A stretch of DNA of 62,206 nt, counting the filler, from Hausera hauseri (Eukaryota): NCBI GenBank assembly GCA_046269625.1. It is 10 parts of 10 records of this genome, joined end to end, with 100 filler letters (N's around TTAATTAATTAA, not from the genome) between each part and the next. Parts side by side here need not be neighbours in the genome. Positions count along the whole stretch, not along the records: positions 14,519 to 18,868 come from JBJURY010622886.1; 9 more parts are not named here. One strand, 5' to 3'. The notes beneath the pieces are model-generated. The model was not told where the DNA came from, ran no database searches, and saw nothing but the letters and a program-made list of their open reading frames with translations. Position numbers and translations under genes: made by a program. This document shows, one piece after another, positions 1 through 62,206 of this stretch; position 1 is the stretch's first letter, and each line of letters begins with the position of its first letter.

Positions 1-744
1 CATCAATGATTTGGACAGATTTATATTGTTTAAGTATTTCAATAGAAGGAATATTCTGAACCAATTGTTCTTTAGAAAAATTAGGCATGACGCTAATTGT
101 ACTAACCAATCGTGACAAAAAATCCGCTAGTAAATTATCTGTGCCAGAAATATGGTTAAACGTTGACAAGTACGAAATATGGCGTTCTTGTCTAAGTGAT
201 GGATGTTTCATGTTTATTACGTGAACGAGGGGCTTGTAATCGGTTTGAATGGTGAAAGACCGGGAGATAAGTAAATGTGAAAAATGTTTAAGAGCTAAAA
301 CGATAGCCAGGAGTTTCCTATAGAAAGTTGAATAACAGCATTCTTGTGGTTGGAGCTTACGTGAAAAGAATTCTAGTGGTTCATTTACTCCTTGAGTTAT
401 TTGATGGAGAACTGATCAGAGGCTGTAGTTGATGCGTCGGTTGTGAGGATGAGATCGTCATCAGGTATTGGATAAGCCAAGATTTAAACGGTTTTAAGAT
501 TGATGTGGAGCTCCTTAAACTGGTTTAGAAGTTCTGGCGTCTAATATAGATGTTTATTCTTTGGTCCTGCTCCTAGTTGAGCGAAAGGAGCAGTTAACTG
601 GCCGCAATGTGGGGCGTATTTATGAACGAAATGCAAAGTCCCGAGAAAGCTGCTCATATCAGTTGTGCATTTTGGTGATTCGATATTTTATAATTGGTGG
701 ATTCTATCAGGCTGTGACCGTCAGGCGTGATGATGTGACCTAGG
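1..744 (-). pseudogene. Gypsy pol fragment (RT C-terminus/connection/RNase H), degenerate; same family as the element at 4560-9217
   Basis: Reverse strand reads LGHIITPDGH, TDMSSFLGTLHFVHK, LILTTDASTTA, PLEFFSRKL, YSTFYRKLLAI, NLLADFLSR with frameshifts. Paralogous to 6900-7560. Confidence 0.9.
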
Positions 745-989
745 TGTAGTGCCTGAGAAGTGGTCGCGCTGGATGTGTTGGCGGATCGGTGAGTAGATTT
801 TTCCAAACATGTGAATACATATACATACTCTTGTTTAAAATGTTACGTTTCTTAGTTTTGAACTTCAGATTTAAATGTTCAAAGTACAACTTTCTTCTCT
901 GATTTTATTGTTCTAAACCATTTTACCATGATTTTATACCAGTGAAATAAAATGAAATTGTAAAATGTTCTATTCCAGTAAATACTACA
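745..989 (+). mobile_element. Solo Gypsy LTR (~245 bp)
   Basis: TGTAGT...ACTACA inverted termini and AATAAA near 946. The first ~55 bp resemble the LTR starting at 9218 behind a polypurine tract. No matching TSD. Confidence 0.75.
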
Positions 990-1337
990 CCAAAATGGGC
1001 TTGGGAAGCAACTTGCATTGTTTTGTATTCGTCAAAGGAGCTGTTAGCATCAGATCTTCGTTGTTCAGAACTTAGTGCAGATCCTCTTGGGGTTTATACT
1101 TTTGTGCCATATAGGAAGATTTCAACATTTGTAACATTATGATAACTGTTGGATGATTTGTTTAAATAGAAAAAATGATAGAAACGAGAAAAAAACAGTT
1201 TTGAATTTTGAATTTGAAATAAAAAATTTTATTTAATTTTATGTGGGTTATTTTGAACCTACATTGGTGTCAGAAGATTATTTGTCATACTTAGGAATTA
1301 TTTGCTTCGTCATTCGTAAATTATTCGATTCTCAGTT

Positions 1338-1974
1338 ATGGGTAAAGATTTTGTTTTAGACGAAGAATTTCATATATATTTCCTTGACTGTAAAGTAGCT
1401 TTTCAAAATTTATCTACAGAAGAAAAACGTTATGCACATTCTTTAGTCAAGGCTGGATGGTATGGCGGAATTATTGATTGTGCAATGCTCCCCAGAGTCT
1501 CCTGGTCTCTTTATAATTGCTCAGCGAATATTTAGAAAGCAGTTGCCTACTGATATAAAATGTTTAGTTCACTCACTTGGTTATGAAGTGGATTTCAGGA
1601 ATTTTTTAAATTTTGTAATTTACGACAATTTGGGAAATTACAAATCATTCAGTGATTCGAAATTTATTCCAAGAATCGACGAGAAATTCTATTCAATAAT
1701 TGCGATAACTAAAGCACACCACGAAAACGATCTTGTCAGGACGATGTATCAAATAATCAAACCGACAATTTATTCGTTAACAAATAAATATAAACAATTT
1801 TGCTTGGGTGAAGGAATCAGTACGTATTATTCGCACATCTGTACGATGGATGATGTGAAAATTGCACGGGAGTATTTGAATGAAAATAATATAAGTTCGT
1901 GCAATACCCGAGTTTTCAAGTCTGTTTCCAACGGAATAACAAATTTCACTGTTAGTAAAGCGTCATCGGAGTAA
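1338..1974 (+). pseudogene. DPP3: Dipeptidyl peptidase III N-terminal fragment, frameshifted near 1470 and truncated
   Basis: LDCKVAFQNLSTEEKRYAHSLVKAGWYGG, QCSPESP, GNYKSFSDSKFIP, GISTYYS and NTRVFK match the DPP3 N-terminal region. No HELLGH motif is present. Confidence 0.85.
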
Positions 1975-4559
1975 ATTTATTTAAGAATATTTACAAAAAA
2001 TATTCAATAAACAGATTACTGACGCATTGTACGATTACCTATGCAACGCAGTCACACGAATTCAACGATCAGCGACATATTACGGATGAGAGTAGTTTTC
2101 GAACTGTCGATGTGTTGATGTCTCGCCGACTAAACCTAACATTAGCTCAACGATATGGGCCAGTGATTTTAAATGGAATTCCAATGCTTCAAGCTGATTC
2201 ACATACGGAAATTGCATCTACTTTATTCATGTGTCCGAGACAAATGAATTCAAAAATATTGGACTCACCAGCTGCCACCAACAATACGGAGAAACCGCTT
2301 TCGGGAAAGTTGGTGGTATTTAAATTGCAGTCAGAGGATTGTAAATACTAGTTATTGGAACAAGTGATCACTAATTTGGACCTTGCCAAAACGGACCCAA
2401 CCTGCGCACAACTGAAATTCATTGATTTTAGTTTCTTCGAGAATGCTCCAGCCATTGACAGAAGACCTTCTGTCGGATATTCAGAAGGAAGTTCCAAATG
2501 TCTGTATAAAACAGGTTAACAACATCGTGCATGTCTTGTTGGTACAGTCTTAAAATGCTCGACTACAATACTGCAATCGCTCAGCTGCAAGATTGGCCAT
2601 GTTCACGTCTAACATTTTGAATGAGGTAAATCAGCAAAATAGTGCTGTAAACAATTCATCCCGACGATTTTTGAGAAAACTCAACATTCTTTTATACTTG
2701 AAATACAAGGAGGAAATATCTGTGGGAAATATTATTTATCCCGGTGATACAGTAATTCCCGATGCTCCAGAGACAAAGGAGATGATTATTTTGTCTATAT
2801 CGAATTGCGAAGAAAAATGGTTTAAAATTAAATACGGCCTGATTTGTAGTGACTCTCGCAAAATATGTTTCGACCTTTGGTTATGAAGATGCAAAATACA
2901 TGGAATTACTAAAAGAAAACACAAGCATGTTAAAAACGGGTATCGAACGTCCGGACGGTGGTTTTCAACTTCTTATTGTGGAAAAATTTCGTTTACTTAA
3001 TGCGAAGCTTTTTATTCATTCAGAGTGTGTTGAACCATTAATAACTGAGGTGGAGAAGAGCTCGATGTTGCTGCAACATTCAATGATGTTATTTGCAGAA
3101 AATAAATACCGATTATCCGTCATGTGAAATAGGAATGACGATTCTTTATCGGTCATAAAAATTGTCAATGTTTATTATAATATTTATGGTCTTACATGCA
3201 AGACAAAGCTCCTTCTTGGTATTGTTTGTAGGACACAACGAAAATTTGTTGATGGGAACATTGACAAATTTGCCCTTTGCGTGTCAAATTTTGGTTTGGA
3301 TGTATGTAGGAGTCTTAGTCTTCGAGAACCGAGAATCGAAGTCGAATTTTTACTAATTATTGAACATGTTAAGAGATTCCTTGTACTGAAACAATCCGTT
3401 AAGCCGACAGTGACGACATCTAATCTGATTAAGGCTTTTAAATTAGCTGCAATATCCTCCAATCACTTCGTGATCATTTATAACATGTAGTAACATGAGT
3501 TCAGAATCATTCAACGCGCGTGGTGAAATTGTGTGAAGTGCAATATTGCACACGTCTGCCGAAGAAACGAGTACAAGTAAAGAAGGAACTGATCAAACCA
3601 TTTCGAACGAATCTGCGAATTTTCAGAAACTGGCTTGGTTGAGCGTACAATTTATCAGTTATGTGAATGATTGCATAAGGAATTTGAATAGCTTGACAAG
3701 TGATTCGAGTCACATTGTTTAGAGTGATATCATTAATAGGTGGCCTCAGTCGATTTTGTTTAACTCTTGCGTTACAGAAACAGTATTACGCCGACGGAAC
3801 TCAACTGCTGCGGAATGAGTGGGTATTATTCGATCAACGGACATGTTATAGAATTGTATTAAATACCTGTCCATGGCGTCTGATTCCGGTTTGAACAAGC
3901 ATGTCAGAAGATTCCAACAGTGTCCGGTGGCATTCTCCGAGTATGTATCCCTCCTTTCAGTCGAAACTCGTCAATTACGAATTTTCTGGAGCAGGCCACA
4001 TTGACGCCTCATTGGACGTACCGCGAGCCAACGGCAACCTCACATTTGGACACAGGTTGGTGGAATTCTTTTTCCTGATTTGTGCCCGTCAGTGCGACCA
4101 TTTTTCGGACATGCATAAATCTTTAGTAGCCAAAAATAATTTTAATTTTAAAAGCCTATTAAGTTGAAACACTTTGGATATACTTTCACCACAATCGTCA
4201 TTTGCCACTACTTCACCAGCTGTACGTTCGAACCTATTCTTAACCCAAAGGGTAACCGCCCAAGCCCCTCATGCATCTCAACATTCTCCTGGGATTACTT
4301 CGCTGCAACTCTCCTTCCTGGTCTTCAGCAATAATCAACACATTAAAACCATTAGAGCTCCACTCAACGTCACAACGCAGCTTCTATACAACTCTATCCT
4401 CATCACTCAATACTTCTAACTTCTATTTCACGCATCAAGGTCTCACTGTACATCCTTCCGACTCGCTTTTGCCATTCACTTGCCATGAACGTCCGATCAT
4501 CTATCTCATGCTCCACTTCCGCCTTCGGGATGGATCGGACCCAAATCCATCTTTCTCGG

Positions 4560-7500
4560 ATGAAAAATCCACAAATACATGCAACATCTTTCGTTTGCCA
4601 CTCCCAACAATCACGAGCTTCGTTAAATCTGCCTTGTGTGGATATTTTTCTTGATAAAATAACTCCAGCAAACCATGGCTCCAATTCCACCAACAGTGGA
4701 TAAAATCCAACAAAATCACCGACTCCTTTGTGCGTGCCAATAGTCTTTTGATACTTCTGCGTGCCAACATTAAGCAGCAGATCAGTAACATCTCCGAACT
4801 GCTCTAATCATAGACACCATGCGAAACACTGTGAGGCTGTACTCCATATCACCGATCCCTCGATAGATCACATTATACAAAAATACTTTAACGATAATGC
4901 TATAGGAAACCAAAAATTATCCGATTTTCTTCAAACGGCCATTCTGCAGCTTATCACTTTAGGAGTAACACCTACGCATAAGGCGGATTTAATTTGTAGA
5001 TATTTTTGTCATCTTTGCCAACCTCAATCAGAGACTTGCTCACGGTTGTCGACGAGTCCACTGCTATTGAAAAACTAGCCATAATGGCTGACAAGTACTT
5101 TGAAATTCTCCATACAAGTAATTCTCTAAAAATTGCGGCTGCAACCACACATACACCAATTATAAACACCACGTCTTTCGCTCAACAACTGAAAATGATG
5201 AAACAACAATTCAACACGTTTCAGCATTCAATTTCGAAAATTACCACCCAACTAAGCAATCTAAATGGGTCGCGACAAAGTAAAACCAAACCTTCAAGAG
5301 GCGAAGCACTTCAAGACACGCTATTCGATCCATTTCGCCTGGTTGACGTATGACGTGATTCTATCACACGCGATTTCGTAAGGATGCAAGGAAATGCTTT
5401 TCCGGTTGTCGATTCTACAGCGAGCGATACGCGGTGGACAACCCTATTTGCATATACCACAACAAATATCAGTCGCAGGCCAGGTCATGTGTGCCTGGTT
5501 GTAAACACTACAAAGATGAATTTCTTCCTTTTCTTTCCTCTTCTTCCTTTCTCCATATCGTTCAAAAAACTAATAATGCCGCCAGATTTTACGGCACATT
5601 CTGGCGCAGGCAATATTGCTCAATCTTCTAGCCGTTTCAACACCGCTTTTGCAGTCTTTCTGTTAAAAGTTACACTGTTATGCAGAGATATCTCATATCG
5701 AATTCCTAATTGATTCAGGAGCTGTCTTTTCACTCCTTCCTTTGTCCTTCACTCCTATATCCACTATGATTTCCTGTCCCCCGCTCTTCACTGCCAGTGG
5801 GCAACCGTTGCTCGTTGCGGGAAAAACAGAACTGACTTTCACATTCTCCAACTTGCCAGATAAATTTGTCTGGAAGTTCCACGTGGACAATATTAAATCT
5901 CCCATAATAGGCTCATATTTTCTTGCTGAACATGATCTGTTGGTCGATTGCAAATACGGCTGTGTTCTGAGCAGGAACTCGATCGCAATTCCAAACGTAT
6001 GTCTCGCAGACAATCTAGCGAACACCTAAATGTACTCTTCTATAAACATACTGAATACCTCGTCAAATTCTCGTCAAATTCATCAATTTCGAAACAAAAT
6101 TCCAATCCGAATATTAACGATGGCAATGCCGGTTGTTCTTCGTCAATTACTGCAACTGGCTCGTCCGTTGATATGCCTCATTCATTCTTATTTCTAGACT
6201 CCAATCTTAAATCAGTCGTGACAACGTCTTGCTTTCGCATAGTTAAAAGAGACGTCAACTTCAAGCCTCCATCCACAACTTACCACCATATAGTAACAGA
6301 GCATCAGAGGCCTATCAAACAAAAAGGCAGACCCTTGTCGCTACGCAGACACAAAGCTGTGGAACAGGAATACAATGAACTGGAAAAGTCTGGAATCATT
6401 CGGAGATCGAATTCACTTTGGGCTTCTCCTCTTCATATAGTAGTAAAGAAAGATGGTACCTACAGGCCATGTGGCGATTATCGCCAATTAAACAACCTAA
6501 CTATTACAGATGCCTATCCACTACCACTCATTAAGGATATTCTTCATAGTCTTAATAACACCAATACCTACTCTACCATTGATCTGCATAAAGCCTACCA
6601 TCAAATCCCTGTTGCACCTGATGATATTCCAAAAACTGCTGTCATCACACCATCTGGCCTTTATAAATACATCTTCATGCCTTTCGGCTTACGTAGCGTA
6701 TCTCAGACGTTTCAGCACCACATTGACACCGTTCTCTCAGGTCTTGACGTTGCTTATCCATATATAGATGACATATTAGTCTGTTCCACCTCGATCAAAC
6801 AACATCATGAGCATTTAGAATTATTTTCCACAGATTGCATTAAAGCAACCTGCAAATCAATTTCGCCAAATGCAATTTCTTCCAGAAACGCGTCAACGTC
6901 TTAGGCCACATAAGTACTCCCGAAGGTCATTCGCCACAGCCTCATCGCTTATAACAATTAAAAAATGTGTCGTTACCAACTTCCACTACCGATATGAAGA
7001 GTTTCCTAGGGACATTGCATTTCGTACACAAAAACGTGCCATATTGCTACGAACTAACGGAACCTTTTGCGCTCCTCTCATCTGAGAAGAAAAAACAATT
7101 AATCCTTTGGACTCCCGATCTAGTAAATGAATTTGATCGCTTTCGTGAAGGTCTGAAAACCGTTGAAATCTCGACTTTTCCAAAACCAAACACGGAACTA
7201 ATATTAACTACCGATGCCTAAATCACAGCCACTAGTGCGATATTACTCTAAATATACAATGGTGTTGATAAGGCATTAGAATTCTACTCCAGAAAGCTCA
7301 CGCAACCAGCAAGCCGATACTCAACATTCCATCGTGAACTCCTGGCCATAATTCTAGCGGTAAAACATTTTAAGCATTTGCATCTATCACATCAATTTAT
7401 CTTCCAAACCGAGCACAAGCCTCTACTTCATATCATGACGCTGAAACAGCCATCATCCAGACATGAACGACAGATAACATACCTGTCGACATTTAGTTTT

Positions 7501-9217
7501 TCCATGAAATATATTTCAGGAACAAAAATTTAGTATCAGATTTTTTGTCGCGGTCAGCCAACTCAATTACAGTTCAGCCAGTTTTCTCCTCTGAAGTCCT
7601 AAGAAGTAATCAGTCACCACCTGATATTCTCCAAGCTTTTAAATCTGTTGAAATCATCGATGGCATCGCTTATGACATTTCCAACTCGACCAACAAGATC
7701 ATTCTTGCTTTATCGCTACAAAAGACAGCTTTCAATCACTTTCACTCTCTTTATCATCTGGGTTCAAAAGCCCCATTTCGTCTACTGGAACGCCATGTTG
7801 TATGGCCGACTATGCGTACAAATGTACAGGTCTGGGTTAAGGGATGTATAGCATATAAACAATATAAGGTTCAAAACACCTCAAACCACCACTTTACCAC
7901 TTCCCTTGTACGTTTCGTTTTGACACCGTTCATTTGGATCTTGTGGGTTCTTTACCATCCGATAACGGCTATCAATATATCTTATCCATGATGGATTGCC
8001 CTTCTCGCTAGCCGAAAGCCGTTCCTCTTCGATCAACCAACACTGACTCAATAGCAGATGCATTTATCAAAATATGGGTCAGCCGTTTTGGCTCACCACG
8101 TCACATCAAAACAAACCAGGGTCCACAATTTGAAGCTGATCTTTTTAAACCTCTGGTAATGCACTTGGCGATAGTCCATTTACATACGACGCCGTGCCAT
8201 CCCCAAGCAAATGGTCCTCTTAAGAGATTTCACCGAACCATGAAGATTTCCTTAAAAATCTTGTCAAATAACAATCATAACGGGACCTCAATTCTTCCTC
8301 TTGTCCTACTCGATTGGCGCAAAACGCCATCCACCACCACAGGTTGTGCTCCACCTGAGACTCTTTTTGGAACACCAATTTGTGCTTTATTTCAGCTTTT
8401 CAATCTCGATGAAAGTCCATTGGATGAAGTTATTCGTGCGGCACAGTCCCACTTTGTAGATGTGAACTCAAAAGCCTTTGCTATCTTATAAATAAAGACA
8501 AATCTAATATACTCAGCCAAGTTTTTATAGCTGAAGGATTCGTCACCTTCTGATTTTTGGCCTCAGTACGTTGGCCCTTATAAACCACTCAACCTTTCTT
8601 CGCCCACCGGTACTATTTTACGTAATGACAGACCTCAAAATGTACATACCTCTAATCTTAAGCTAGCATTCTTTGTCGAAGATGATCAGTATAACAGCCC
8701 TGTTTCAAATTCTAACTTTAACGTATCTCCTCTCGAGTCATCGTCTAATTTCCTCAATGATTTTGATCCGTCGCAGCAATTACTTTGGCGTCACAATCAG
8801 TTCTCTTCAGTTCCGTCGTCGTCCACTGCTCCCTCACCGCTTACGTCGCCGTCATCGCCTGCACATCCACTACTCATTTCACATTCATCGCACGATTCGC
8901 TTCCATCTACAGTCACGCCTTCTTCGCCTGATCTTTTTCCTTTTTCAGCTTCTTCTCCACTTTCACTTCTTCATGAAGCATCCTCCAAAAACACCACAAA
9001 ATCCACAGAATATCTCCCTCGAACAACTAAACAAGCACCAACAACATATAACAGACCACGCCAAGTAACATTTAGCTCCTACAGTAGGGAGAAGTTCACG
9101 GATGAAATCCAACGTTTGACACGTAAAAAAACCCAATAGGTACAAGTTCTTCTTTTTCTTACAATAATCTACCTCTATTTTTCTTCTTTAGTCTTCATTT
9201 TTGCTACAAGAGGGTGA
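4560..9217 (+). mobile_element. Degenerate Ty3/Gypsy LTR retrotransposon internal region (gag-PR-RT-RH-IN), CsRN1/Mag-like gag
   Basis: Gag LPTSIRDLL..LAIMADK and CIYHNKY..ARSCVPGC knuckle; protease FLIDSGA (~5704); RT WASPLHIVVKKDGTYRPCGDYRQLN and YIDD; RNase H LTTDA; integrase WVSRFG and HPQANG; PPT AAGAGGG before 9218. Many stops and frameshifts. The 5' boundary is approximate. Confidence 0.92.
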
Positions 9218-9290
9218 TGTAGTGCATGAAATGTGGTCGCACTGGCGAGGTTAGCGAACCGGTGAGGAGATTTCTCACTATGCTCATGAT
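9218..9290 (+). repeat. 5' portion of the 3' LTR of the Gypsy element
   Basis: TGTAGTG follows the PPT and resembles 745-800. The right end is not resolved. Confidence 0.65.
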
Positions 9291-10033
9291 AAAAAATCTG
9301 ATTATATTCCGCAGTTATCACACGTTTCTTTAATTCCTAATTTTCAATTTCGTAACTTTGATACACTCAAAGATATCTATTTCTTGATCATTTGCTGATG
9401 ATTTCACGAATTATAATTGGCAAAAACCGGATAAGGGATTGCCACCTTTACTAAAAAAATACAGTCAAAATTTACAGAAGAATACCATGGAGTCGATGCA
9501 TTGTACGTTATACTGACAATTTATATTGGTTGACGATTTTTATTTGATTAAGAAACCAATCTGTTTTATTCGGTTTTTTGAGTTTGTGTTTGGTGTTAGT
9601 TGACTAAATATTTATTCTGATGATATTTCGTTTATGGCGTATTTTTGATTTGTACGAAATTATTTATTATGCACTTCGGACGAATCAACAAACATTTGCT
9701 ATCTAACTATTACTGAGAAAATAATGTCTTATGCTTAATAATTAATTGATAATTGATTTAGTTTTTTTGAAAGTCAAAATAAATTATCGCTATATCTTAT
9801 CTCTTATCGGTTGGATTTATCTTGTCGTTATTTGGAACGACAATCTTCATTTGAACCATCTTCAACTCTTGACTTTTGAACAATTGATAAGATATCATGG
9901 GCTTCATACCTACCATTCTGACCCCATCATCTCCATAAAGATATGTAATATCCAATTGCTCTTTCAGCTTTCTCATGTAATCGATCAGATATTCAGACTT
10001 TCTCTTACAGTTTGGAAAGTCCAGCACCTCATC

Positions 10034-12082: not shown

Positions 12083-13950
12083 TTACACCAGAATTTCACG
12101 ATGCATAATATCTAATAAGCATTCGCGTTCGAAGGAGCTAACCATAGGATAACGTATCAGAATGTCATTAATTGTCAGGTTTCGATAATCGTGAGTTTCC
12201 GGGCGAATATCACGTCGTCGCATCAGGATGGAGACTGTCCTATAGGTTCGAGTCAAAAGTGCGGTTACTAGGGAGTCTCTTCATACGAATCATGAGCGTA
12301 GTTTACGTCAAATAGGTAAGTTCCGTTATCGAATTTCTTATTCAGAAAGGTTTCCAACAAGAGGAATCGTTTGAATACTATTGTATGATGTAATGGCGTA
12401 CTACGTAATTGTAGTTGGAAAATTGCTTGAAATACCTTATTGTCGTAGGCATAATCAAATATTAGGATTGCAAGATTATGTCGATTGTGCCGGATAGCGA
12501 GTAATAAGGGAATGTCTCCGTCGACGTTAGGTATGTGTAATTGTTCTTGTGACTGAATGAACATGAATATGAAGAAATCATGGCATTCACTCATAATGGC
12601 TAAGTGAATGATGGTATTGCTATTTGTATCTTGGAATTTTAACGCTTCCGCTGCTTCATCGCCTAATTGATATATAACTTCTCTAGCTCTTTCGTCCGTA
12701 CACCCCAACATGTATCGTTCCGCTTTTGGTAGAATTTGTTCCTCATGGCTTTTGACGTAAGGGTAATATTCTTCTTTGATAGTCGATAACCATTTTTCAT
12801 CATCATAAATTTTAAATTTATATTCCAAATTAGTTAAAGGAATTTCCAATTGTCTATTGTAATCAAGTATTGGTCTATGACGGGATATATCTCTTCTCCC
12901 GTGCTTGTTTATATACGCATATAACGATAATTGTTATTATAAGTATGACGCCAATGGGTACTACTATTACTATTAGCAGGAATATATTATAATTTATTTG
13001 GAATTGTTGTATTGGTTCAACTGATGATGGTATGATGCTCAACGTTTCATTATCTTTAGGAGAACTGGTATATATTCTAAAAATAAATTTTCCTCTTTTC
13101 ATTATTTCATTGAGTGTAGGAAATTTGAACAATGAATGTACTCCTTTCTTGAGTGTAGTGACTTCCAATAACGCGACTGTTTTTGGTTTTCGTAATGGAT
13201 CATAATGAGGTAACTGAATATGGGCTAAATAAGGATAACCTGATATTAATTGAGCACACTCGACGTATGTACTGGTAACTAGGAAACAGGCGTCATTTGC
13301 ATTTTCCAATGTGACGATAGTCAGGATTTGGTAAACTGAATATTACACGATCGGATTTCACTTGAAGGTAAATGTCCAGTGTTTTGAAGGGAATTATTTT
13401 AATTTGTTCTGGTGTTTGTCTTAACTCTGCTATTAGATAAGGAATTTGGTTATGAACCGAGTAGTAAAATCTATTTAGCCAAAAGGTATTTGGGCAGGAT
13501 GATTGTAATTGTAGTGTAAGGAGTATTTGTCGATTGTCGTGTTTTGTTTATGATACTGGAGGTCGAGGACTTGTGACTTCCAAAGTATACACTTCACTGT
13601 AGCGTTTTGCAGCACATGATAGGGCATAATGGGCTCTACTGATTTGTGGTGCAACCACTAGAATTTCATTCTCGTTAAATATTTGTGCTTTGATCCGTTT
13701 ATTATATTCAATAGAGGGGATGCATGGAATTATTGATGTCTTTCTTTCAATTCCAGTTGCTGTGCATCGCCATATACCATTTACAATACGAAACAGCGAA
13801 TATTAATGTATATTCCTGATCAGGTCGTGCAAAAATGCAGGTTGATTGATTATGTTCTCTGGAATAATGGATGTTATCACCGATGGTTACATCAGCATAT
13901 TGAGTGGTTATTTGCATTATTCTGCTTTTTGATATTTTTCTAACAATAGA
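12083..13950 (-). pseudogene. Type-I membrane protein with cytoplasmic ankyrin repeats (Notch-like topology), frameshifted
   Basis: TM IFLLIVIVVPIGVILIITIIVICVYK, then by frameshift near 12885 ankyrin repeats (NTIIHLAI, GDIPLLLAIRHN, STPLHHTI, ETPL), ending EILV* at 12083. The 5' end is approximate. Confidence 0.7.
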
Positions 13951-14518: not shown

Positions 14519-15469
14519 TCCAGTCCAATCCGTTGGAATGTCATGGATGGAGTGGAGAATAAGGGGGTTTTGTCCGTGAGAGAGAGCGAATGAAGTTTTC
14601 CCAATATTAGCGGCCCCGAAAATGACGGCCGAATTTACCCCTAGTTCTGGTTCAAATCGAATAGGGGGCAAGAGAAATTCCTGATTGACCGGTTGATACT
14701 TTTCCCGGAACTTATTGCGCACGTATGATGTTAGCAGACGATGTCGAGTTATAAACTCAGATCTGTCGCATTCCTTCATCGTCTGGAGGGCCTCCTCAAC
14801 TGTCGGCGCCTCGTCGAACAGCTTATAGATGACCTTCTTGGAGGTATTTTCCCTCCAGACGTTAAATGGCTCCTTGCCAAATGCAGCGATAAGTGCACCA
14901 TCGAAGGTGTCCTTATGGTGAAATTGATACACCTAAAAAAATAATAATATTAATAAGCACACACACATACCTTCTGGATATCGGCGCGAAATGGAAGGAC
15001 GTGTGCTACAAGCACATTCCACATCGTAGATATCTTGTTGGGAGTCGGCGTATAAATGAGGACGTGCATGTGGTGAAAACCACTAGGTGCACGCTCCTCT
15101 TGAAGGCGAATATACCAGTGCTTTTTTAAATAGAGGCGCTGGTATTGGTCCAATCGGTACTCCGCATTAAACTGCTCGTCCAATTTATGGACTAACATAA
15201 AATGCCGGAACGTAGAATTTCTAGGGGGCATAGCAAGTGTTTTGACTGGTTCAGGGAATTTACTTTGGAGGGCCTCAAAAACCTCCGGAGGGAACTGATC
15301 CTCCTTAAACAGAGGCATGGGGTTCTCAGCATTAACAGTAATGTTTCGTTTGTATGATGTTCTACCGAAAAAAAATTAAACATCGAATAAAAATAAAATA
15401 AACCTACTCCGCGTTAGCTTTCACGGCGGGGGTTAATTTAATAACCCGATGCAAATTAAATTCATCCAT
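14519..15469 (-). CDS. rep: Spliced CRESS-like Rep, copy A (HUH endonuclease + SF3-helicase-like P-loop); exons 15469-15408, 15361-14971, 14932-contig end; 3' partial
   Basis: Motif II QEERAPSGFHHMHVLI and Walker A GAANIGKT. Motif III region VYQFHHKD. GT-AG introns of 46 and 38 nt give one continuous frame starting MDEFNLHRV. Confidence 0.88.
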
Positions 15470-16158
15470 TTTCAATAAATATATATTTAAAAGTTAAATA
15501 AAATTATGAGCCAGATTATAATATATATTTGAAATTGAGCTGGCTCAATTTTAAATAAGATTTTAACGGGGCACAAAAAATTCAAATTGATTCAACCAAT
15601 TACGCACACCAACAAGCGAACGGTTGATAATAACGTTACTAAGCAACCCGAGATAATGCACTAATTCACTGGCGCCTACAATATTGATTTATGTTATCGG
15701 CCGATACATATTAACAATGCGCGGAAAGTCAAGTGGCACTTGACTACCGCTGTAATTACCCGATGCTACTCGGACATTACATGCACCGGGTTTCCTTCAT
15801 ACAATGGACTGCCCGAGACACAATTAATACCGCACTTCAACACTACTAATGTAAATGGCCGAGACCCTATACGGCCGGTCTCGATACACTTAATATAGCC
15901 TTAAATCTGGTTAACATTAAAGTTCAAATATAGTCAGTTAGCTCAAAATAAAAATGAGCCAAATATTTAAATATCATTTATTTTATTATTATTTATTTAA
16001 TATTTTTAATTTATTTTATTATAATTATTATTATTATAATTCATATTTTTATTCTTATAATTTTTTTTTAAAACTTAAATTTTTTTCATTATTTTTTTTT
16101 TTTTAAAACTCTTAAATTTTTTTTAAGTTACTAAATTTATTGTTTATGTTCATTTTAG
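15470..16158. promoter_or_regulatory. Bidirectional control/origin-like region, copy A
   Basis: Palindromes at 15532-15551 and 15727-15745, plus a 28-mer at 15854-15881. All have collinear counterparts in copy B. Confidence 0.65.
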
Positions 16159-16629
16159 ATGGCTAACCAATCATATGCAGCAGCACTACTGAACTGGTAC
16201 AACCTTTTAGCAAAGAAAAGAATTGATGAGGACCTAAAACTTTATCGCAAATAATTTGAAAGGGTTCAAAACTTGGCTCATTCTTTTAATAGAATAATCG
16301 AGGAATCGATATTGAGAAATTGGGACGACACAGAAGCTCGGACCCGCCTGGACATGGCCCGGACTTCTTTGATAAATTGTGCTGAAGTCCGGGATAGGAT
16401 CCGGGAATATCTTAGACAATTGGAAGCTATGGAAGGCCAATGGGTCTTACCCTTCGATGGTGCGACCTATGCAGCTGACTCACCAGCACCCTTCTACGAG
16501 GCTTGGAAGGACCTCGACACACCTGCTCAGGTGAAATGGATCCGAGAAACCGAAGAAGACCTGAAGAACATGGCCAACATTGTGGATCATAACCTTTGGC
16601 CAAGGGTCGAAAACCTTTTTATCTTGTAG
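16159..16629 (+). CDS. Unknown ~156-aa Rep-partner protein (ORF X, copy A) with one internal TAA where copy B has Glu
   Basis: MANQSYAAALLNWYNLLAKKRIDEDLKLYRK*FERVQNL...ENLFIL is homologous to 17066-17293. TTTTAG lies directly before the ATG. Confidence 0.75.
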
Positions 16630-16736
16630 CTTGTTATATAATAAATTGATGTCTTGACTTTAGGTCTAAAGATGCCAACGGAGGTCCAAAGCCCTCGTGT
16701 AAATCTGATGGGACCTTTAACTTTATATTTAAAAAA

Positions 16737-16789
16737 AAAAGTAATTTGCTTTTAAGAGTCAAACGACTCTTAAAATCATTATTACTTTT
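16737..16789. repeat. Interrupted inverted repeat / hairpin downstream of ORF X
   Basis: AAAAGTAAT-n4-TTTTAAGAGTC-aaac-GACTCTTAAAA-n5-ATTACTTTT. Confidence 0.8.
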
Positions 16790-17065
16790 CTGATTTACTC
16801 AGAAATAAATCTGATATATTTTCAGAAATACTACTGAATACTACTGAAATACTACTGAACATATAGATTTCCCATCTTAACTACATTTCACGTACAAATT
16901 ACATATATTGCCTATACTTCTCCTAAATTACCTCCATATTACCCATATGCTACCATTATATTTTCCTATATTACTTATATATTCCCCACAATGTCTATAT
17001 ATTCCTCTCATCTTTCGCGAAAGAAAAATATTAGATGTATGCTGAATTGTAATATACCAGCTAAA

Positions 17066-17293
17066 CTATCTCAAGCAGAAGGTATCAAGCAGAGCCATTT
17101 CCATCCGGATCCTTGCCTGGGGGTCGTCCCAGTTCCGAAGAATACTCTCTTCAATAATTCCTCGGAAGCTGTTACCAAGGTTGGTGACCCTGTCAAGTTC
17201 TCGACGATACAACTTCAAATCCTCCTCAATACGTCTTTGGGCTAGAAGGTTATACCAGTTCAAAAGCGCACGAGCATAATTTCGGTTGGCCAT
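17066..17293 (-). pseudogene. ORF X copy B, 3'-truncated (homology lost near 17093)
   Basis: MANRNYARALLNWYNLLAQRRIEEDLKLYRRELDRVTNL..IIEESILRNWDD. Confidence 0.75.
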
Positions 17294-17912
17294 TATTTCT
17301 AAAATGAAAATAGAAATTAATTAGAGCCGCGAAAAAAATTTAAAAGTTATAAGGAAATAAAATAATAAAAGTAAAAGTTAAAAAATAATAAGTATAAAAA
17401 AATTAATGTAAAAAAATAAATAAAATAATAATAATAAATTAAAATATAAATTGAATTTAGGCCCGAAAATATTTTGAGCCACGTTGCAAATTTATTTCTT
17501 GCAGTTAACGCATTTTGAGCCAATATATTCATTGATTAGACCGGCCGTATAGGGTCTCGGCCATTGCATTGTCAATGTAAAGTCCGGTACACATGAAACC
17601 CGAGATAAGTAGTCTAATGTCAGCCGTCGCTCAAGTGCCACTTGACACGCTGACAATTAATTACACGTAGTGCCCGAGAGCAATTATCGATTAGCTGGTA
17701 GTTGCTAACTCTCGTGATTGTGTGCGTTGCTAGGCAACGTTAAAATCAGCCAAAATAATTTCAATGCGCATACCGACACACACACGGCTGATTCAAAATG
17801 TTATTTTTCTACCCAGACTTATTTATATAATTTTGAGCTAGCTCAATTTCAAATATAAGTTATAGCTAGACTCAATATTTTATTTGAAATTAAAAATATA
17901 AATTAAAGCGAA
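17294..17912. promoter_or_regulatory. Bidirectional control/origin-like region, copy B
   Basis: 28-mer at 17538-17565 (exact reverse complement of copy A); palindromes at 17631-17645 and 17833-17846. Confidence 0.65.
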
Positions 17913-18868
17913 ATGGAAGAAAATCATCTTGAAAGAACTGTGGTTTTACCCCCCCCCCAATGTTAAAACACACTTCTGAGTGAGATTTTGATTTAAATAT
18001 TTTATGAATATTTTTATTTTGCAGAACATCATACAAACGTAATGTTTTAATTGGTCCTGGATTAGAAACTCCATTGTTTAAAGAGGATCAATTCCCTCCG
18101 GAGGTTTTTGAGGCCCTCCAAAGTAAATTCACTGAACCGGTGAAATCTCTTGCCATGCCCCCTAGAAATTTTACCTTTCGTCATTTTATGCTTGTTCATA
18201 AGTTGGATCCTACTTATGATGCTGAATACAGATTGGATCAATATCAGCGCCTCTATATAAAAAAGCATTGGTATATTCGCCTTCAGGAGGAGCGTGCACC
18301 TAGTGGTTTTCACCACATGCACGTCCTCATCTATACTCCTACTCCAAACAAGATATCTACAATGTGGAATGTGCTTGGTGCACATGTTTTACCGTTTCGA
18401 GCGGATATCCAGAAGGTATGTGTGTGTGTGCTTAATATTATTATTATTTTTTAGGTGTATCAATATCACCATAAGGATACGTTCGATGAGGCAATTATTG
18501 CAGCTTTTGGCAAAGAGCCATTTAATGTCTGGAGGGAAAATACCTCAAAGAAGGTTATTTACAAGCTGTTCGATGAGGCGCCGACAGCTGAGGAGGCCCT
18601 TCAGACTATGAAAGAGTGCGACAGGTCTGAATTTATTACGAGACATCGTCTTCTTACTTCGTATGTGCGAAACAAGTTTCGGGAGAAGTACCAGCCTGTT
18701 AATCAAGAGTTTCTCTTATCTCCTATCAGATTTGAGCCAGAACTAGGCGTTAATTCAGCTGTAATTTTTGGAGCGGCCAATATTGGCAAAACTTCATTTG
18801 CCCTTTCTCATGGACGGAATCCACTTATTCTCCACTCAATCCATGACATTCCAACAGATTGGACAGGC
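17913..18868 (+). CDS. rep: Spliced CRESS-like Rep, copy B; exons 17913-17979, 18025-18415, 18455-contig end; 3' partial
   Basis: HHMHVLI, VYQYHHKD (YxxK) and GAANIGKT. Introns of 45 and 39 nt at the same positions as copy A. Exon 1 is out of frame by one base at the C10 run (17949-17958). Confidence 0.88.
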
Positions 18869-57430: not shown

Positions 57431-60400
57431 TCAATTGCCAAAAGAACTAAGGAAGAAAGTAAGAAAACCAACAAAAACAATGGTTAATATTGGTGCATTC
57501 GGCACAGAGGAGGAAATAAAAACCGTTTTAGACGTAGAATTCAAGATTTGCAATCAAACAATAAAACATACTATAGGAATAGCCAAGAATCTGACTAATG
57601 AAATCCTGAATGGATGCGTTGTTCTGAATCAATTAGAAAATGTATATTTCGATGTAAAAACCGCTCAACTTAAGGAATTTGGTAAGGAACAACATGAAAG
57701 GTCAGTATCACTAACAAAGGACATAATAATCCCAGCACGCTCTGAAATAATAGTACCTGGAGAAATAAAAGGTCGATTATTAGACATTAATGTACATTTT
57801 GAACCGTTTTCACAAATAATGGAAAAATATGACATCTTCGTAGCTCCGAATATTGACAAAATAATAGACGGAAAAATTCATCTAAGAATCTGCAACATTT
57901 CAAATAATAAAAAAGGTTGAGGAAAAATACAAGATTAGGACAAGTAACGGTTATCGAAGAAGTAACAAAAGAAGAAGTTAATTCAGTGATTACAGATGTG
58001 GAAGAAATTGAGAAAATGATGACCCGAAAAGTAATGAAGAAGACAAACCAAGAAAAAGGGGAGAAGAAACATAGTAAAATTAATTGGGAAGAGAAATTGA
58101 GAGAAAATCAAATGTTGTCAACGGAAGAAAAGGATATGTTAATTCAATTATTAAAAAAATGATAACCGGTTTGCCCAAAATGATTATGACTTAGGGACAA
58201 TGAATGTGATACAACACACCATTAAACTAAAGAAAGGACAGGACAAGCCGATAAAGAAAAGACCATACCGACTGGCCTATGATAAGAATCAGGAAGCGCG
58301 AAAAATCATAAAAGAAATGAGAGAGCACAAAATAATTCGACCAAGTTGCTCTCCTTGCACAGTACCAGTGGTGATGGTAAAAAAGAAAGATGGAGCCATG
58401 AGATTCTGCATAGATTATCTAGCACTAAATGAAATAACCGAGACAGACACATGCCCATTACTGAGAATTGATGAAATTCTGGATAAACTACATGGATCAA
58501 CAATATTTACGACTATTGATTTACAGAAAGGTTATTGGAAAGTAGAAGCAAAAGAAGAGAATAGAGCAAAAACGGCCTTTTCAATAGGCGAAGGTTTGTG
58601 GGAATTAACAGAATTCCGTTCGGACTAAAGAATGGACCACCAACATTCCAAAGAGGAACAGAATTATTACATGCTAGATGCACCTCATGCCATGGTATAT
58701 ATTGACGATGTGATCATAGCGTCATCCGATTTCCAACAACACCTAAAGGATCTGCAAGACTTTTTTGATAGATCTGAAATAATGGGTTTAAAAGTAAACC
58801 CAAAGAAATGTTCATTTTCCAAAGCTGAAGTGGATTTTCTTGGACACCGAGTCGATAGATATGGGGTAAAATCCCAAGATAAACTTCTGGGTAAGATTAA
58901 AGATTTTCCAAAACCAACTACGATCAGAGAACTACGTCAATTCTTAGGACTGACAAATTATTATCGACGCTTTATAAAAGACTTTAGCAAAATAGTTAAA
59001 CCCTTATATGAACTATTACGGGAAGATTTAGAAGAAGTACTATGGATAAACTGGTGTCAGGAAACTTTTGAAAATCTGAAGAATAAGTTATTGGCAGTTC
59101 TAATTTTAATCTACCCAGACATGACCAAACCATTCATATTAGCAACGGACGCAAGCGATTACGGAGTTGGAGCAGTTTTATCACAGAAGGGTGAAGACGG
59201 AAAAGAACACCTGGTAGCATATGCTTCAAGGAAGCTTAATAAACATCAAAGAAAATACTCGGTGATAGAGAAAGAACTGTTAGCAGTAATATTTGTGCTA
59301 GAAGTGTTTTCTCCATACATTGGCGAGAATAAAGCCTTGATAATATATACCGATAATCGACCCTTACAATGGTTGAAGCAACATGAAAACCCGAATAGTC
59401 GATTATTACGTTGGACTCTAAAGCTACAACCATACACGTTGAGTTTTCAGTATAAACCCGGAACACGAAACGCGAATGCGGACTATTTATCCAGACTGCC
59501 TGCTAAACTAGAAATGGAAAAAGCAGTAGTGGCGGCCGTATTGAGCATGGATGGATCGCCAGAGAAAATAAAAACTAATCAAAATGAAGATTCTGAAATA
59601 AAAGCCATTAGAAAGTACATACAAAGTAAGGTAATAACAAAGAATAAGGAATTAGCCCACCATCTGGCCAGGTTTAGCGAAGCATACGAGGAAAAAGAAA
59701 GGTTTTTATATTACATTGATCAGAATGGACCAACCCCGGTAATCCCTCTGAAAAACATAGCAGTATTGTTAACACAATACCATGACGGATTATTAGGAGG
59801 CCACCAGTCAGCACGAAAGACAGTAAACAAACTAAAAAGGAAATATTTTTGGCCATCGTTGGTAAAGGACGTACAAGAATGGTGTGTTAGCTACAAACTT
59901 TGCGCTACGCGAAGGAACACCGGATCCAAATTTAAAGCTCCCTCAAGGTATGGCATAATCCACCTGCTCCTTTTGAATTCACAGCAATGGATATTACTGG
60001 ACCATTACCGCTACCCAGGAATGGAAATAGATATATTGTGGTCTTCATTGACAACTTTACTCGTTGGGTTATTGCATTGCCGATGGCCGACATGAAAGCC
60101 GAAACAATATCTGAAAAATTCGTAGAAAATATTGTGTTTAACTACGGAGCACCACGAATACTACTAACCGATCAAGCATCTAATCTAACCGAGAACGTAA
60201 TGCAGGCAATATACAATATCATGAAAATATTGAAATTACGATCTACATCAGGACATCCACAGAATAACGGAATGGTTGAGATATATCGGAGATTTAAAAG
60301 GGATGCTGCAAACAGTAGTAAATACTAGACAAAATGACTGCGATGAATACATCAATGCATGCATTTTTGTGAATCGAACATCAGTACACGAGGCTACTAA

Positions 60401-60790
60401 AGAAACCCCCTTCTATCTGATGTATTTACGAGACGCAAGGCTACCCATTGATTTAGACTTTAATATAAAACCCACATCACATCTGATGGAAGTAGAATAG
60501 CATAAGCAACTAATGCAAGAACGTCTTCAGCTTACATATAAAGTAATAGAAGGTAACCAGAAGGATTATAAGGCGAATTAGAAAAAGTAGAAGACCAAAC
60601 AACCAAAAATCAAAGTAGGAGATAAAATGATGCTATACACTCCATTAAGAAAGGTAAAACATCAATGTTGGATAGACCTTACAAGGGACAATATAAAGTG
60701 GAAAAAGTGGATTTACCTAACGTCTGTCTAAAAAAAAATAATACCTCTCTTAAGGTCCATGTCAATAGATTCAAACCGGCAGCTAAAGAA
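57431..60790 (+). mobile_element. Ty3/Gypsy pol (PR end, RT, RNase H, integrase), degenerate
   Basis: VKKKDGAMRFCIDY, YIDD, LRQFLGLTNYYRRFI, LATDASDYGVGAVLSQ, HDGLLGGH, MDITGPLP, HPQNNGMVE, KVHVNRFK. Confidence 0.95.
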
Positions 60791-60833
60791 AGTAAACTTA
60801 GAAGAGATGAACAAGATATAGTAAGAAGTATTA

Positions 60834-62171
60834 ATGAGACTTTTACGGGGTAAAGAAATATTTTGTCATAATTATTCTTATGCATATTCCACAATCTCTA
60901 AGTCAGATGACAAAGCAAGAAATAGAGCGAGCAAAAATTCGACCTGTAATAGTTACAAACGAAGACTTACTATTAAAGAATTTACGATATCGAGTAACAT
61001 TCCAATAAAGGCCAAAAATGTATTACATGGCATACACTAAGTCGTATGACCACCGACTATATGGTAGAAATCCAATTAATACCTTCTGACGACGATCGAA
61101 GAAATCCTAATGAACGACAGTATGACTGTATACTCCCTCCGTGGATGAACCAAACACAATGTGTTGTGGAAGATTCAGGAATCCATTATGTATATTTCAC
61201 ACTTATAAAGAAGAAAGGAAAGTACTATCGAAGTCAAATAACTAAATTTTCAAGAATTATAAAAGTTACCACTAGACACGAAATGAATAAAACATTATTA
61301 CATGAAATAACAATAACCCAGTTATCGGCTAGGTCAATCGGATTTAAAAGCGGAATAAGTTGCATCGAAGTAAAGAGCATGATAAAATTGGAATATATAC
61401 GATGGATAACCATATTCATAAAAGAGATGAACGCTAAAACGAATGTAGTAACAAGATATAGAATAACGAATGAACAACCAAAAGTTTGTTGTAACGTTAC
61501 TAGAGGTAGAATATATGAACGGAACTATAAGATCTCTCGAAAAGAATATGGTAAGTTTCTAGGTAGTATAAAGAGGAAAGGTCCAATAATGTACGTACGA
61601 TATCAAAATCGAATCAAACACGAGGAAAAAGAAAACGTTACGGTACCAACTGTGCATCCCTCACCTAGTAAAAAGAATGATCAAAAGGACTATCTTAATT
61701 AGACCACACGCATCATATTACCGCCAAAAGCGCTCAATATGGGAAAACATAACGACCACAGCGGCGCCGACCGCACTAATAATATCACTAAAACCAGATC
61801 TCGATTTTTCAAAAATAAAATTTACACCAGATGACCTAATAGTGTCACGCTTGGCATTAACTTTAAATACTAGATATACGATTATCTTACAGCTGTTTGA
61901 TGACGCTAATAAGCTCAAACGAAAAGTGAAGTAGAGATAAAACTACCATTTAAGAAAGTAACCATTAGCCACTTGATAACCATAATTCCTCCAAGTACAG
62001 GATTACACACTCACGGTTAGAGATAAAATATTATGCACAACAATCCCAGTAGCAGTAATAATCATGACACTATTAGTAGTAAAATTAACCTGTTACCTAC
62101 GAAAACGTCGCAGGACAAACTGGATAAGAATAGACCTGCGACGTATACCGCAAGCCTTGGATGTAGGATAG
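60834..62171 (+). pseudogene. ORF3 after integrase: broken type-I membrane protein
   Basis: Hydrophobic N-terminus via frameshift (FVIIILMHIPQSLS), 218-aa and 85-aa segments, C-terminal TM ILCTTIPVAVIIMTLLVVKLTCYL then RKRRR, stop at 62171. Confidence 0.6.
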
Positions 62172-62206
62172 TCCAAGCTGACAAATACTGATAAAGATTA
62201 CGACTA

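Follow-up and report, generated by a model that had tools for sequence, protein, structure and literature searches.

The window analysed here, a stretch of 62,206 nucleotides, is made of 10 contigs that are joined by N-linkers and need not come from one organism. The third of these contigs (14519-18868, 4350 nt), which is not circular and carries no host flank, holds the whole finding. It consists of two inverted units, each made up of a Rep gene, a small gene that we call gene X and, between them, 620-690 nt of intergenic sequence. Both Rep copies (A and B) are oriented outward to the contig ends and both gene X copies inward. The Rep copies are 3'-truncated soon after Walker A, leaving the helicase half incomplete, and the two contig ends fall on the same homologous Rep nucleotide. 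The features are collected in Table 1. Elsewhere in the window we observe retrotransposon pol fragments (1-10033 and 57431-62206), an ankyrin-repeat ORF (12271-12933) and, on a contig with a Ty3-type pol, a frameshifted fragment of dipeptidyl peptidase III (Peptidase_M49, 1340-2014) followed by a candidate 44-nt GT-AG intron (1971-2014).

Table 1. Features of the two inverted units on the contig, in window coordinates.
Feature	Position	Strand	Description
Rep A exon 3	14519..14932	-	414 nt to contig end; motif III position, central domain, Walker A; ends before Walker B
Rep A Phe codon at motif III Tyr column	14921..14923	-	
Rep A intron 2	14933..14970	-	38 nt, phase 0, GTATGT..TAG; UG repeat after donor; TTAAT 21 nt from 3' end
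Rep A exon 2	14971..15361	-	391 nt; N-terminal extension, degenerate motif I FMLVH, motif II HMH, GRS-like W..LGAH
Rep A intron 1	15362..15407	-	46 nt, phase 2, GTAGGT..TAG (GT-AG)
Rep A exon 1	15408..15469	-	ATG at 15469, 20 codons and a split codon, in frame
27-nt block, unit A	15855..15881	.	shared without differences by the two Rep-X intergenic regions; putative origin or promoter element
Gene X copy 1	16159..16629	+	divergent from Rep A; 156 codons, internal stop at codon 32
Gene X copy 2	17066..17293	-	divergent from Rep B; stop after 75 codons
27-nt block, unit B	17538..17564	.	same block; intergenic regions otherwise diverged
Rep B exon 1	17913..17979	+	from ATG 17913 out of frame; from ATG 17960 in frame
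Rep B intron 1	17980..18024	+	45 nt, phase 2, GTGAGA..CAG (GT-AG)
Rep B exon 2	18025..18415	+	391 nt; motif II HMH at 18314-18322
Rep B intron 2	18416..18454	+	39 nt, phase 0, GTATGT..TAG; acceptor TAG is an in-frame stop
Rep B exon 3	18455..18868	+	414 nt to contig end; YHHK (Tyr 18464-18466), central domain, Walker A 18770-18793

We consider the smaller components of the units before the Rep genes. The two gene X copies are identical at 47 of their first 67 residues, and gene X was once functional because pN over the 67 codons is 0.21 against a pS of 0.95. Its family was not found: there is no Pfam match below E=0.1, no PHROG match and no relative in viral contigs, and the Atlas gives weak matches only. 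Nor is a capsid gene found on the contig; the remainder of the element lies off it. Shortly 5' of the ATG of both gene X copies, after a long AT-rich stretch, there is an acceptor-like TTTTAG, and a 5' UTR intron in gene X is suggested. A candidate third mini-intron of 38 nt (GTAGCT..TAG, 16626-16663, plus strand) is seen where gene X copy 1 ends, and would add about 42 codons to it. In the intergenic regions, the 27-nt block folds no better than its shuffles (12 and 16 of 200), and the canonical nonanucleotide is absent from both. The pentamer TGAGC/GCTCA occurs 5 times per intergenic region versus 0-1 times per Rep gene. Strong DNA hairpins are located at 15721-15752 (z -4.2) and at 16740-16785 (z -6.6), the latter between the converging X genes and beside three 14-nt direct repeats (16825-16859).

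Both units carry lesions, namely the Phe in Rep A, a frame shift in exon 1 of Rep B (reading from the first ATG across a stretch of ten C is out of frame, and an ATG further on is in frame), the stop in gene X copy 1 and the truncation of gene X copy 2. Since copy A has the Phe, copy B a first ATG out of frame, and both gene X copies look broken, the copies are probably partly decayed. We compare unit B (17520-18868) with the records of run X1, a run of uncertain kind that is possibly the source of the contig. Forty-nine records fall on unit B, 4 of them at 99% identity or above and 24 below 90%, and because of this variation unit B is taken as a member of a multi-variant family. A match in run X2 is rejected, being a simple repeat of 38 nt aligned with 8 gaps. 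Together, the two units (Rep, intergenic region and gene X, arranged tail to tail) are probably partly decayed members of a multi-copy family, either integrated or co-replicating, and the simplest reading is of decayed copies that are possibly integrated. Records 6 and 7 of run X1 have 1 and 50 differences, and both extend to the same point 30 nt beyond 18868. This shared stop suggests, by inference, an assembly branch point at which divergent variants have a common sequence around Walker B, and which would explain the matched contig ends at 14519 and 18868.

What kind of protein do the two Rep copies encode? From its motifs we read it as a highly divergent Rep of the CRESS-DNA-virus type, with an HUH nuclease and an SF3 Walker A, and copy B carries the motifs that can be looked for, motif I being degenerate. 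Pfam offers a weak match only (Gemini_AL1, E 0.02-0.06). A search of 1.84 billion representatives gives three matches, of which two (P0001 and P0003) are CRESS Reps with a Gemini_AL1_M domain; the third (P0002) is an FG-GAP repeat protein and is dropped as chance. A profile search leads to a 2166-nt CRESS genome (IMGVR_UViG_3300017598_001695, here L001), in which the Rep (578-1525) is a single open frame of 315 aa and the second gene is convergent. With L001 as the seed for 89 related proteins, an alignment set of 91 relatives at 15-26% identity is obtained. Searches of 5.8 billion proteins, 1.84 billion representatives, the viral, metagenome and genome contig collections, plasmids and phages turned up no close relative, and the 436 candidates of a homologous-protein search contained none either.

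In the alignment with the 91 relatives, E89, H97, H120, Y147, K150 and the K/T of Walker A are nearly invariant. Motif II is HMH, with H97 present in 87 of the 91 relatives and H99 in 74. At motif III copy B has YHHK (YxxKD) and copy A has a Phe in the Tyr column, which is Y in 88 of the 91. The motif I columns align to FMLVH, with Val where 80 relatives have Thr, and Walker A is GAANIGKT in A and B. The stretch ahead of motif II is 103-117 residues here versus a median of 65 and a maximum of 129 in the relatives. In a quick tree, exon 3 groups with P0001 and P0003 (SH-aLRT 95) on a long branch (2.06), and in the Atlas exon 2 alone is placed near Cressdnaviricota clusters at 0.91-0.93, below the recognition line.

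The alignment-based fold (pLDDT 70, pTM 0.43) leans on the supplied Rep alignment and is built on the read-through of intron 2, with low confidence at residues 126-170; as a model it supports the Rep family and is uninformative on the geometry of motif III. Compared with the PDB, its best 13 matches are all Rep nuclease domains, the best having an E of 1.6e-3 and none reaching E<=0.001. Compared with BFVD there are 225 matches at E<=0.001, and those named at the top are Reps of gemini-, genomo- and other CRESS viruses. The fold from the single sequence is uninformative (pLDDT 33).

We turn to the four AT-rich segments that interrupt the two Rep genes. A preliminary description of this DNA had placed two introns in each copy, with GT-AG ends, the same positions and phases, and an exon 2 of equal length in both; each of these points is borne out when the segments are read on the sequence. 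The segments have a GC content of 0.18-0.23, versus 0.41-0.48 in exons 2 and 3, and the 12 nt 3' of the first acceptor and the 12 nt 5' of the second donor are the same in A and B. If either segment is kept, a stop codon results in both copies. Each has what is expected of a U2 intron: GT-AG ends, a conserved position and phase, and a protein restored on removal. The same description had intron 2 separating the HUH motif from the catalytic YxxK and helicase half. The position stands, between motif II and motif III; the YxxK is found in copy B only, copy A having FHHK, and the helicase half is incomplete. Frame-keeping alternatives around intron 2 are numerous (42 splice pairs in B and 41 in A), among which GTATGT..TTTTAG has the best donor and retains both motifs; an alternative in-frame donor, GTGTGT, lies 6 nt downstream of the intron 2 donor in A and B. 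A scan of the other 9 contigs of the window for mini-introns gives candidates at 4 places, none of them confirmed.

The exons that flank these segments are under purifying selection. Between A and B, pN and pS are 0.094 and 0.49 in exon 2, and 0.020 and 0.68 in exon 3. The selection reaches ahead of the first Met common to both copies (codon 44 of exon 2): codons 16-43 have a pN of 0.03 and a pS of 0.44, and codons 1-15 are unconstrained (0.44 and 0.46). Because codons 16-43 are constrained ahead of the first shared Met, translation is taken to start upstream, across intron 1. In run X1 the variants contain both segments in a DNA-like form, and 16 of 18 exon substitutions are at third positions among the 40 of 169 rows listed.

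For intron 2 the spacing of the motifs gives a further measure. The first His of motif II and the Tyr of motif III are 35-48 residues apart in 87 of the 91 relatives (those with Tyr in the column) and 38-40 in 67; the distance here is 37 without intron 2 and 50 when it is read through. The GRS-like motif has a conserved His, H(PN), whose distance to the Tyr is 11-23 residues in 85 rows of the alignment and 13-15 in 65, and here 14 in the spliced versus 27 in the read-through form. The profile of the 91 relatives likewise scores the spliced form above the read-through, at 59.0 versus 50.3 bits for B and 52.6 versus 47.8 for A. Homologs that read through these segments as protein would speak against introns; the relatives are without these residues, and only the spliced reading fits their motif spacing, with the qualification that they are distant (15-26% identity) and come from gene calls made without splicing, which intron-bearing kin would escape. 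The MAFFT alignment gives the size of the surplus rather than where exactly it sits, with 3 of the 13 intron-coded columns being filled.

We conclude that all four segments behave as introns, and we infer that they are excised, likely by a eukaryotic host. The reading we favour, and consider probable, is that both are ordinary spliceosomal mini-introns that are constitutively removed from a divergent CRESS-type Rep. The host would likely be a eukaryote with very short introns. One transcript would begin in the intergenic region and take in three (or more) exons, and with both introns out it would yield a single working nickase-helicase. Copy A, with its Phe at motif III, is predicted to be unable to nick. 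If intron 2 were kept, the premature stop ahead of the catalytic Tyr would leave a dead stub or a decayed mRNA.

Is intron 2 in any way special? It had been described as more conserved between the copies than intron 1, and we find it so: 35 of 40 columns are identical in intron 2, a score reached by 0 of 2000 shuffles, against 30 of 48 columns in intron 1, whose score is reached by 530 of 2000 shuffles and is thus no better than shuffled (Fisher p=0.014 for the difference), both identities being somewhat inflated by gapped alignment of AT-rich repeats. Intron 2 also exceeds the four-fold sites of the exons (51 of 99 identical, p=5e-5). Splice signals alone do not account for this, because intron 1, which is just as short, does not outscore its shuffles. 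Under constitutive removal, the identity of intron 2 would likely come from splice signals packed in 38 nt together with local exchange among the many variants. The synonymous divergence of the exons is patchy: 80 of 10000 shuffles attain its block variance, and 174 of 10000 match its quietest stretch of 25 codons; the longest unchanged synonymous run between A and B is not significant (548 of 10000). This is the pattern that exchange among variants would give, and two copies do not separate constraint from exchange.

The conservation could alternatively reflect regulation. Intron 2 may be an on/off switch whose UG repeat binds a host splicing factor, such that retention turns Rep off by decay or by a DNA-binding stub dead for nicking, with intron 1 being constitutive. 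Splicing regulators that bind UG repeats exist, intron 2 is placed exactly where its retention takes away the catalytic Tyr, and its identity exceeds that of both the four-fold sites and intron 1. Exon 2, however, has equally long identical runs (39 and 44 nt) besides the patchy divergence, and the whole comparison involves two full copies. In addition, the intron varies in its 5' half among the few run X1 records that bear on it: four 1-nt indels occur in the intron 2 of one contig, and in two further records the letters of its 5' part, ahead of 18432, are unrelated. We regard a regulated switch as unlikely.

A larger picture may be drawn if the Phe of copy A is included. The two copies differ at only 6 of 138 exon 3 residues, and this Phe is among the differences; a second Tyr, common to A and B, is found two residues upstream of the motif III Tyr column, to which the catalytic residue may have shifted. 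In work on a geminivirus Rep, the substitution Y103F serves to eliminate nicking (PMC6213642). A Rep mutated in motif III is described as inhibiting maize streak virus (PMC4148390). One could then imagine an uncatalogued gemini-like replicon lineage, without recognisable capsid, in a eukaryote host with tiny introns, in which the conserved UG-rich intron 2, lying between the HUH and the catalytic Tyr, controls replication as a splice switch inside the active site of the nickase, turning Rep off on retention, and the paired Tyr-to-Phe copy on the same molecule is a built-in dominant-negative brake or an antiviral decoy kept by the host. We offer this as a speculation that is distinctly improbable.

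Retention of intron 2 had also been likened to the Rep/RepA system of mastreviruses. The predicted stop is confirmed in both copies, and a short HUH-only product would follow from it. This product would span about 150-157 codons, include motifs I and II and end ahead of motif III and the central domain; since it stops before the Tyr motif, which has the cutting and joining function (PMC10288648), the stub is predicted to be unable to nick. The likeness itself does not hold up beyond this truncation and is a weak analogy; at most, intron 2 could be an off-switch. For the unspliced message to encode a second functional protein with a role of its own, as a true RepA analogue, one may point to the presence of motifs I and II in both copies, to the four residues VCVC that begin both retention tails, and to Rep and a second gene diverging from one intergenic region, which resembles the mastrevirus layout (PMC6333858). 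The tails, on the other hand, are unconserved, with 6 and 12 residues in different frames from introns of 38 and 39 nt. LxCxE is absent from the product of both copies, as are motif III and the central domain, and neither AATAAA nor ATTAAA is present in intron 2 or the next 60 nt. Mastrevirus RepA, as described, is the main product and comes from the unspliced message (PMC6333858, PMC2666655); it has the DNA-binding and oligomerization domains in common with Rep, and its LxCxE mediates binding to retinoblastoma-related proteins (PMC6333858). A true RepA analogue is thus very unlikely.

Least credible of all, to the point that we give it hardly any weight, is the idea that the segments are insertions of low-complexity sequence into an ancestor, already dead, from which both copies descend. 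In its favour, the segments consist of AT-rich simple repeats, other lesions occur in both units, and among the 5 joints listed for run X1, a run of uncertain kind, none skips either segment. Against it, the divergence of A and B under strong purifying selection came after both segments were in place, and all four segments keep GT-AG ends at the same positions and phases even with the interior of intron 1 fully diverged.

Introns of this kind would have consequences for how such elements are found. Gene callers that are blind to splicing break a Rep of this kind into short pieces, which may explain the lack of close relatives and could in this way conceal an entire lineage of intron-split CRESS elements. 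The intron size provides a handle on the host. If both introns are constitutive, the element is a modest addition to the known spliced Reps; if intron 2 is regulated, it would control rolling-circle replication in a way unlike the mastrevirus mode.

How does the element compare with the systems already described? Predicted GT-AG introns are common in CRESS Reps, as in the 36 crucivirus genomes of one report (10.1101/2020.02.27.967703). The Rep of Botrytis cinerea ssDNA virus 1 has a 381-nt intron (PMC8262958), and spliced Reps are described in arthropod-associated CRESS genomes (PMC6186406). As given in these reports, each has one intron and the helicase motifs are in the second exon, whereas the Rep described here has two introns and is split between motifs II and III. 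In the literature searched, whose coverage was incomplete, no CRESS Rep with two mini-introns or with an intron between motifs II and III was found. Mastreviruses share with our element an intron in Rep, a shorter product on retention, and a Rep and second gene that diverge from one intergenic region (PMC6333858, PMC2666655, PMC4148390). They are described with one intron, while there are two here, of 38-46 nt, and intron 2 lies inside the nuclease domain ahead of the Tyr. Replitron-1 is similar in that it is multi-copy and eukaryotic and encodes an HUH Rep akin to CRESS Reps, in a gene for which RNA-seq shows two introns (PMC10288648). Replitrons are described there without a fused helicase, and the SF3-type Walker A of the present Rep, which matches the viral Reps, sets it apart from them. 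The element cannot be filed under any named virus family or any Rep/RepA system. It is best placed beside the unclassified CRESS Reps (P0001, P0003, L001 and the 89 proteins), with which it has in common the HxH of motif II, the GRS-like ..G.H, the YxxKD (in copy B), the central domain and the Walker A GxxNxGKT. It differs from them in its 15-26% identity, its two mini-introns, a longer N-terminus, the missing Thr of motif I, a partner gene without a recognised capsid family, and the arrangement of two inverted units on one contig.
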